Notes under the pieces: model-generated | Databases searched by the model: none | What the model saw: only the letters and a program-made list of their open reading frames with translations | Told to the model about the DNA's origin: nothing | Origin: Escherichia coli | Lineage (GTDB): Bacteria > Pseudomonadota > Gammaproteobacteria > Enterobacterales > Enterobacteriaceae | Strand: one strand, 5' to 3' | Length of the DNA: 64,000 nt | Assembly: GCF_003334355.1 (NCBI RefSeq) | Contig: NZ_QOWP01000013.1 | Position numbers and translations under genes: made by a program | Shown: one piece after another, positions 39,020 through 41,126 of the stretch | How positions within the stretch are numbered: position 1 is the stretch's first letter | Layout of the letters: every line of letters starts with the position of its first letter

Positions 39020-40138
39020 ATGAAATACGATCTCATCATTATTGGCAGCGGTTCCATAGGCGCTGCCGCCGGGTATTATGCAACCCGCGCCGGTTTAAAC
39101 GTGCTAATGACCGACGCCCATATGCCACCGCATCAACACGGCAGCCACCACGGCGATACGCGATTAATTCGCCATGCTTATGGTGAAGGCGAAAAGTATG
39201 TCCCACTGGTACTCCGCGCGCAAACACTGTGGGATGAGCTCTCCCGCCACAACGAAGATGATCCCATTTTTGTACGCTCTGGTGTCATTAACCTCGGCCC
39301 GGCTGACTCCGCATTTCTCGCCAACGTCGCCCACAGCGCCGAACAGTGGCAACTCAACGTCGAAAAGCTCGACGCGCAAGGGATTATGGCCCGCTGGCCA
39401 GAAATACGCGTCCCGGACAACTACATCGGCTTATTTGAGACTGATTCCGGTTTTTTGCGCAGCGAACTGGCGATTAAAACCTGGATCCAACTGGCGAAGG
39501 AAGCGGGCTGTGCGCAGCTGTTCAACTGCCCGGTCACCGCAATTCGTCATGACGATGATGGCGTAACTATTGAAACGGCTGACGGAGAGTATCAGGCGAA
39601 AAAAGCGATTGTCTGCGCGGGAACATGGGTAAAAGACCTGCTCCCGGAGCTGCCTGTCCAGCCCGTACGCAAAGTATTTGCCTGGTATCAGGCCGATGGT
39701 CGCTATAGCGTGAAGAATAAATTCCCGGCGTTTACCGGTGAACTGCCCAATGGCGATCAATATTATGGTTTTCCGGCAGAAAACGACGCGTTGAAGATTG
39801 GCAAACATAACGGAGGCCAGGTTATCCATTCAGCGGATGAACGTGTTCCGTTTGCGGAAGTGGTCAGCGATGGTTCGGAAGCCTTCCAGTTCTTGCGCAA
39901 TGTCTTGCCGGGTATCGGTTGCTGCCTGTACGGCGCTGCCTGCACCTATGATAATTCGCCTGACGAAGATTTTATTATCGATACCCTACCCGGTCACGAT
40001 AATACACTGCTCATTACCGGCCTGAGCGGGCACGGTTTTAAATTTGCGTCTGTTTTAGGGGAAATAGCTGCCGATTTTGCGCAAGACAAAAAAAGCGATT
40101 TTGATTTAACGCCATTCAGGCTTTCCCGCTTCCAATAA
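39020..40138 (+). CDS. solA: N-methyl-L-tryptophan oxidase
   Basis: 372-aa FAD-dependent oxidase with dinucleotide-binding motif [13 protein letters not shown]. Confidence 0.95.
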
Positions 40139-40158
40139 TCATCATTACGGCCTCCAGA

Positions 40159-40299
40159 ATGAGGCCGTTTTTACAGGAGTATTTAATGCGTCGGCTGTTG
40201 CACTATCTCATCAATAATATTCGCGAGCATCTGATGCTTTATCTTTTTCTCTGGGGATTGTTGGCAATTATGGATCTGATCTATGTGTTTTATTTTTAG
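40159..40299 (+). CDS. yceO: Small hydrophobic protein (46 aa)
   Basis: Short [49 protein letters not shown]; below the ORF-track size cut-off; coding status not testable from sequence alone. Confidence 0.5.
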
Positions 40300-40559
40300 T
40301 TTTCCGCACTGACATAAACTGACAAATATTTAATCTCCCTTTCATTTAGTGTGAAAAATTGAATGAGATTATTCCTGCTTCTACAGCACTCACCAGACAT
40401 CTCTGATGCTGAACCCACTAAACTTATGAAGATTCTTTCATTATTAATTCAAAATTATTGAAATAAAAATAAATATCATTCAATTTGTTATTTTTGTGTT
40501 GCAATTCATTCTCCGACACGCCATTTTCTTTCTCTCGCAAATTCGTTTTGGATGCACTT

Positions 40560-41126
40560 ATGTCATTCACAAATACCCCTGAACGCTATGGTGTTATATC
40601 TGCGGCCTTCCATTGGCTAAGCGCAATTATTGTCTACGGCATGTTTGCTTTAGGTCTGTGGATGGTCACGCTCAGTTATTACGATGGCTGGTATCACAAA
40701 GCACCCGAACTGCATAAAAGCATCGGTATTTTGTTAATGATGGGGCTGGTTATTCGCGTTCTGTGGCGTGTCATATCTCCACCGCCGGGTCCGCTGCCGA
40801 GTTATTCGCCCATGACTCGTCTTGCCGCAAGAGCTGGACATCTCGCATTGTACCTATTGCTTTTCGCCATCGGCATCAGCGGCTATCTGATCTCAACTGC
40901 CGATGGTAAACCGATCAGCGTTTTTGGCTGGTTTGACGTCCCCGCGACCCTTGCCGACGCTGGCGCACAGGCAGACTTTGCCGGTGCCCTGCATTTTTGG
41001 CTCGCGTGGAGCGTCGTAGTACTGTCCGTTATGCACGGATTTATGGCCCTGAAGCATCATTTCATCGATAAAGACGACACTCTGAAGCGCATGCTGGGAA
41101 AGTCGTCATCTGACTATGGAGTATAA
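40560..41126 (+). CDS. yceJ: Cytochrome b561-family membrane protein
   Basis: Start placed at internal Met (MSFTNTPERYG...) to give 188 aa; four predicted TM helices with conserved His. Confidence 0.88.
   Translation: MSFTNTPERYGVISAAFHWLSAIIVYGMFALGLWMVTLSYYDGWYHKAPELHKSIGILLMMGLVIRVLWRVISPPPGPLPSYSPMTRLAARAGHLALYLLLFAIGISGYLISTADGKPISVFGWFDVPATLADAGAQADFAGALHFWLAWSVVVLSVMHGFMALKHHFIDKDDTLKRMLGKSSSDYGV

Follow-up and report, generated by a model that had tools for sequence, protein, structure and literature searches.

In Escherichia coli, translation of the small-protein gene yceO most likely begins beyond the solA terminator hairpin

The 46-codon reading frame that opens inside the terminator hairpin of solA (positions 40159–40299, plus strand, in the ORF list of the window, by which we mean the whole 64,000-nucleotide stretch of Escherichia coli DNA analysed here) harbours a real, conserved small-protein gene, the translation of which most likely begins not at the ATG in the hairpin but at a second ATG, at 40186. 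An earlier note had called the frame yceO-like, and rightly so: its nucleotides are exactly those of K-12 yceO/b1058 (NP_415576.1), the product of which is named 'DUF2770 domain-containing protein YceO'. The gene order in the window is pyrC–dinI–bssS–solA–yceO–yceJ–yceI, and the K-12 gene has the same neighbours, solA, yceJ and yceI; K-12 yceO is, however, annotated with 46 aa from the hairpin ATG, whereas the conserved gene has 37 aa from 40186. The gene, its operon and the terminator were all known before. Our model as a whole, to which we assign a probability of about 0.8, joins a 37-aa start at 40186 to transcription from the solA promoter through a leaky terminator. Its features are the following.

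38997, plus strand: solA transcription start site (TSS), from SMRT-Cappable-seq (K-12 1120609, minus strand); no other TSS is reported for transcripts extending into yceO
39020–40138, plus strand: coding sequence of solA (N-methyl-L-tryptophan oxidase), stop codon TAA at 40136–40138; ORF list and RefSeq
40147–40173, plus strand: solA intrinsic terminator, proposed partial intra-operon attenuator; fold, covariation, presence in 53/53 loci and mapped 3' end
40159–40185, plus strand: nine-codon 'extension' of the MG1655 annotation (MRPFLQEYL), made up of the hairpin 3' arm, the U tract and the Shine–Dalgarno region; nonconserved and itself without a Shine–Dalgarno sequence
40175–40179, plus strand: Shine–Dalgarno sequence AGGAG, 6 nt before the conserved start at 40186; duplex with the 16S 3' end −6.9 kcal/mol
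40186–40299, plus strand: yceO coding sequence as conserved, 37 aa, stop codon TAG; homologue alignments, selection, RefSeq and Pfam

That the frame is a gene was judged from conservation and not from length, since 4 kb of this DNA holds 69 ORFs of 20 aa or more and ORF length alone is not significant. Our comparative set comprised 56 solA-anchored loci from species-representative genomes, analysed by tblastn and for ORFs. A YceO homologue of 37–38 aa directly follows solA in 53 of these 56 loci, all within the Enterobacteriaceae and drawn from Escherichia, Citrobacter, Salmonella arizonae/diarizonae, Kluyvera, Kosakonia, Enterobacter, Leclercia, Yokenella, Pseudescherichia, Siccibacter and others, with 51–76% identity across genera. 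For the 37-codon frame, pN/pS came to 0.277 for the family as a whole (52 distinct sequences) and to 0.064 for Escherichia alone; the two alternative frames gave 0.8–10.7, and third positions were variable in 36 of 36 cases. The frame is under purifying selection and is a real gene. Non-synonymous and synonymous rates near parity, which the earlier note had named as evidence against coding, were not found, and to its question of whether the ORF or only the hairpin is conserved, the answer is that both are, each in 53 loci.

The long form matched Pfam PF10968 (DUF2770) with E = 3e-22 in hmmscan, over model positions 1–36 of 36 and residues 10–45, the model start coinciding with the second Met (Met10 of the long form). 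In length class and in the motif NN[IV]REH ... D, the protein agrees with PF10968 and the RefSeq 'YceO family protein', as represented by 63 clusters; the sole difference lies in the nonconserved N-terminal nine residues of the long annotation, which are outside the model. The 63 clusters were recovered by an exhaustive profile search of representative protein clusters, used to establish the extent of the family, and all of them are short proteins carrying the motif or gene-calling fusions to the solA C-terminus; the YceO family is small and was found in enteric bacteria only. Sequence searches of NCBIfam, PADLOC and PDB gave no relatives of YceO, and an Rfam search returned merely chance matches, below gathering scores.

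In an alignment of 24 YceO proteins, M1, N11, R13, H15 and D30 were invariant, and R3, L8, N10, E14, M17, Y19, W23, L25, L26 and A27 were at least 90% conserved. The expectation of a hydrophobic micro-protein with a single transmembrane segment agrees with our own prediction of one helix of 22 residues (residues 16–37, mean Kyte–Doolittle value 2.05), within which the invariant Asp is situated. The N-terminal 15 residues are basic, with a net charge of +2, and by the positive-inside rule YceO would be a single-pass protein with its N terminus inside. We know of no partner protein or activity of YceO. A role as a subunit or partner of YceJ, the cytochrome b561 homologue encoded downstream, was considered and rejected as unsupported, because yceO adjoins solA without yceJ–yceI in Kluyvera, Yokenella, Pseudocitrobacter and Pluralibacter. 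Chromosomally encoded YceO-SPA has been seen by immunoblot at a very low level (PMC12529367). In the literature, YceO has been grouped with acid-stress small proteins; in an acid-stress Ribo-seq supplement, yceO (as the 46-aa model) showed log2 changes of about −0.75 to 1.07 with non-significant p-values.

A number of irregular yceO sequences were also observed. Frameshifted versions occur in the E. coli database clusters P0038, P0067, P0085, P0089, P0091, P0097 and P0098, most with breakpoints near T-rich runs of the ORF, and are either sequencing errors or sporadic pseudogenes. The gene has been lost from Enterobacter sp. BIGb0383, where yceJ and the solA hairpin persist, and from Shimwellia pseudoproteus; in Salmonella enterica subsp. 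arizonae it is interrupted by a premature stop, W23* (coordinates of loss or truncation: L034:3600–4030, L051:1590–2100 and L028:3660–3770). As it is lost or prematurely stopped in these lineages, yceO is dispensable in some lineages.

The second in-frame ATG, at 40186, lies 27 nt (nine codons) downstream of the hairpin ATG and 19 nt beyond the hairpin. Its duplex with the 16S 3' end compares with one of only −1.7 kcal/mol for the hairpin ATG, and a purine-rich element is found at the Shine–Dalgarno position in most of the 53 loci. Homologues align from the Met equivalent to 40186 (MRR[LI]..NN[IV]REH) in all 53. The same 37-aa start (40186–40299) is used in RefSeq PGAP E. coli genomes (WP_001253418.1) and in the curated O157 Sakai record NP_309463.2, while the 46-aa form is still used by MG1655, UniProt and the Storz-lab 2025 study. 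Upstream of 40186 the frame is poorly kept: E. whittamii and two further species of Escherichia have TTG as the codon at −27, the long frame is closed by in-frame stops in many other genera, and in 23 loci there is no in-frame ATG, GTG or TTG before the upstream stop, which is often only 6–27 nt away. The hairpin ATG is in frame in E. coli, E. albertii and Escherichia sp. MOD1. Of 5414 E. coli genomes, 4164 carry an exact match to a 65-nt region around it; the hairpin ATG was kept in five other E. coli strains aligned and invariant in the E. coli genomes sampled. In E. coli S87 (L067), a TAA within the extension directly precedes the second ATG, and the 37-aa ORF is intact; this strain has three changes in the part equivalent to 40159–40188, one in the U tract (GCCGCTTTT), one in the Shine–Dalgarno sequence (AGGGG) and the T-to-A substitution that creates the TAA. 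We found no direct evidence on the start of YceO, either from initiation-arrested ribosome profiling or from N-terminal proteomics, in Vellappan 2025, the text of the Weaver 2019 preprint or the supplements of TRAINSPOTTER and Stringer 2021.

We infer from this pattern that yceO translation most likely begins at 40186, in E. coli itself as elsewhere, and that the nine-codon extension is most likely untranslated; the hairpin ATG is probably a product of longest-ORF annotation in MG1655, which has placed the start nine codons too far upstream. The claim that translation would require unfolding of the terminator is not supported, since the conserved start lies 19 nt past the hairpin and has its own AGGAG Shine–Dalgarno sequence. 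Nor is this a case of translational gating by a sequestered start codon, which calls for a functional, conserved start in the hairpin; the conserved start is outside it, and in most species the hairpin ATG is missing or out of frame.

The hairpin itself consists of CGGCCTC (40148–40154), the loop CAGAAT and GAGGCCG (40161–40167), followed by TTTTT (40168–40172); it begins 9 nt after the solA stop and folds with −12.3 kcal/mol (7 bp) or, with an extra A–U pair, −14.1 kcal/mol. The upstream ATG, described earlier as lying within the stem, is indeed in the hairpin but straddles the boundary of loop and 3' arm, its A and T (40159–40160) being in the loop and its G (40161) the first base of the 3' arm, the remainder of which is made up of codons 2–3 (AGG CCG). 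The earlier identification of the hairpin as the solA terminator is upheld by the fold, the U tract and 3' ends mapped to about 40173: a GC stem-loop with a U tract lies downstream of the stop codon, and 3' ends fall at the U tract, as in an intrinsic terminator. A consensus terminator scan did not list the solA hairpin, probably because the A–U closing pair takes one T and leaves four in the scored tail.

In each of the 53 loci a stable stem-loop separates the solA stop from the yceO start (median ΔG −15 kcal/mol), with a median intergenic length of 50 nt and a median gap of 18 nt from hairpin to start; in most of these loci the solA stop lies 5–10 nt before the hairpin. The stem sequences vary by genus (GGCCTC, GGCCCCG, GGCTCCGG and AGGCACAT are examples). 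In an alignment of 43 sequences, both partners varied in nine of ten hairpin pairs, and pairing held in 86.5% of cells, against 28–48% with a slid partner. The covariation score of 0.313 was reached by none of 500 shuffles, the mean of which was 0.177, and compares with at most 0.083 for slid partners. The hairpin is independently conserved, as a structure rather than as a sequence. Within 8 nt past the predicted stem, 23 of the 53 loci have four U or more, and Kluyvera has about two; predicted stems often take up U's as A–U pairs.

Published long-read data were placed on the window by the verified relation K-12 coordinate = 1159606 − window position, which may be off by 1 nt. SMRT-Cappable-seq of K-12 in M9 gives 83 reads for the TSS at 1120609 (minus strand), 23 nt before the solA ATG (PMC6131387, Supplementary Data 1 and 2). 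Forty-six of these 83 reads end at 1119433, that is, at about 40172–40173 of the window, the end of the U run; five pass the terminator and four end within 50 bp, and the median read-through is 160 nt, reaching just beyond the yceO stop (PMC6131387). These counts put read-through of the solA terminator at roughly 10–15%, a figure that represents about 55 long reads and one condition. The operon table of the same study lists solA, solA–yceO (which is the RegulonDB operon) and solA–yceO–yceJ, all from TSS 1120609, and its tables contain no yceO-only transcription unit or internal TSS (PMC6131387). We found no sigma-70-like site on the plus strand between 38900 and 40700, and the last 60 codons of solA have normal third-position (synonymous) variability, with no dip, which argues against a conserved promoter embedded in the solA 3' end.

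Our working model for the expression of yceO is as follows. With no room for a promoter of its own, yceO would be transcribed from the solA promoter, and the minority of polymerases that read through the solA terminator would make yceO RNA, which would then be translated from its own Shine–Dalgarno sequence and AUG beyond the stem. The terminator would act as an intra-operon attenuator that holds YceO far below SolA, and the very low level of YceO is attributed to this minority read-through of a leaky terminator. We infer that read-through is the main route of yceO expression under all conditions.

Other observations were made in and around solA. The 3' end of solA is found neither in the Adams 2021 term-seq nor in the TERMITe supplements. 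A table from Adams et al. 2021 (PMC7815308), which we have taken as the list of bicyclomycin sensitivities, includes a site at about 39187 (K-12 1120419, minus strand); within that reading of the table, this site in the 5' part of solA suggests Rho-dependent premature termination in rich medium. A hairpin with a T run at 38928–38949 (AAAGGCACC TCAC CGGTGCCTTT), after the bssS stop and about 50 nt before the solA TSS, is presumably the bssS terminator.

Two other views of the frame itself may be weighed against this evidence. The earlier note had offered a choice between a small membrane protein and a non-coding artefact, with the terminator as the only functional element in the latter case. 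An ORF that is very short, homopolymer-rich and expressed at a very low level, that is frameshifted in some E. coli entries and that is missing or cut short in a small number of lineages (L034, L051 and L028) lends itself to such a view, but the frame-specific purifying selection (pN/pS), the conservation of position and length in 53 loci, the residues invariant across genera, the match to PF10968 and the detection of YceO-SPA refute it, and we consider an artefact extremely improbable. What stands is a real small protein, the membrane segment of which is a prediction. It is also very unlikely, if less so, that E. coli makes the 46-aa protein, alone or beside the 37-aa product, with ribosomes starting at the hairpin ATG while the stem is unfolded; the extra residues would then be a lineage-specific N-terminal extension gated by folding of the terminator. 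The MG1655 annotation of 46 aa agrees with this proposal, as does the in-frame hairpin ATG of E. coli, E. albertii and MOD1, kept in the E. coli genomes sampled, although the extension bases make up the stem, the U tract and the Shine–Dalgarno sequence, which suffices to account for their invariance within E. coli. An 11-residue peptide was detectable with the 46-aa ORF on pBAD, a construct that forces the upstream start, but was not detected in the wild type (PMC12529367). The hairpin ATG, moreover, has weak pairing to 16S rRNA in place of a Shine–Dalgarno sequence and is buried in a hairpin of −12 to −14 kcal/mol, the codon is TTG in three Escherichia species and the frame is closed in many genera and in S87. 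Some 84% of transcripts end 14 nt past this ATG in the published SMRT-Cappable-seq data, and initiation there would consequently be mostly futile, on non-stop RNA. The start at 40186 is the reading that we retain.

The distant members of the family have a different arrangement. They remain in the bssS–solA–yceO neighbourhood, with a GerE-family gene inserted: in L060–L063 (about 1720–2630), a gene for a 209-aa GerE/LuxR-type regulator lies between solA and yceO, and yceO is preceded not by the solA hairpin but by an upstream region of its own with a perfect TATAAT (L063, 2466–2471). Given this TATAAT-bearing region, solA read-through is not the sole expression route in the family, and the terminator-coupled arrangement is typical of the E. 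coli/Citrobacter/Kluyvera group and not universal.

These relatives bear on the proposal that a separate promoter within the 3' part of solA drives most of the transcription of yceO, the hairpin then serving as a 5'-UTR stabilizer or translational modulator. Besides the independent upstream region with its TATAAT, the proposal could draw on transcriptomes in which an acid-related response of yceO is reported without mention of solA, and on the fact that low-abundance TSSs can escape long-read methods. Against it, every transcription unit with yceO begins at the solA TSS (PMC6131387), no sigma-70-like match was found on the plus strand at 38900–40700 and third-position variability is normal in the last 60 solA codons; solA may contain a weak, nonconserved promoter, but we think it unlikely that such a promoter is the main source of yceO RNA in E. 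coli. A further possibility, to which we give slightly more credence while still doubting it, is that read-through is conditional and not a fixed leak: provided that it is in close coupling with RNA polymerase, a ribosome terminating at the solA stop could mask the 5' arm of the hairpin and suppress termination. If this were so, YceO synthesis would report on the translation of solA or respond to a stress such as acid. Read-through from the solA promoter into a frame starting at 40186 remains our preferred reading.

The region downstream of yceO has features of its own. The yceO–yceJ spacer (40300–40559) is about 259–264 nt long in Escherichia, Citrobacter, Salmonella, Leclercia and Kosakonia; blocks near yceJ, for example GTTGCAAT and CGCCATTTTC, are conserved, and the rest is divergent and AT-rich. 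A direct repeat, TGACATAAACTGACA, at 40310–40324, 11 nt past the yceO stop, has the arrangement TGACA-N5-TGACA, which occurs nowhere else in the window of 64 kb (0.11 expected). The TGACA repeat is kept in genera in which yceJ–yceI follow and is absent where the convergent gene trhO directly follows yceO; three TGACA copies are kept in a genome without yceO. It looks like a candidate binding site in the control region of yceJ–yceI.

The choice of start codon has practical consequences. Nine residues of the 46-aa YceO of MG1655 and UniProt are probably never made, and a wrong start affects synthetic peptides, expression constructs and mass-spectrometry targets for the protein; if the 37-aa start is right, the 11-residue peptide of PMC12529367 does not exist in wild-type cells. 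The case also illustrates that longest-ORF start calling can produce an apparent paradox, here a gene that seemed to begin within a terminator. On our model, the locus would be a textbook case of a small-protein gene kept at a low level through a leaky terminator.

Both halves of this model have known counterparts. AcrZ, MgtS, CydX and YohP belong to the Hemm/Storz set of small single-pass inner-membrane proteins of E. coli. YceO is like them in having fewer than 50 aa, one hydrophobic helix (predicted), low abundance and detection by SPA tag, but differs in that its gene is linked to solA and not to an operon for a transporter or an oxidase. Partial intrinsic terminators are likewise known from inside operons, an example being the internal attenuator of rpsU–dnaG–rpoD. 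The solA hairpin resembles an attenuator of this type in that a minority of transcripts pass it and the downstream gene is held at a low level, and is unlike such attenuators in that many genera keep the hairpin with a poor U tract after the predicted stem, or with none.
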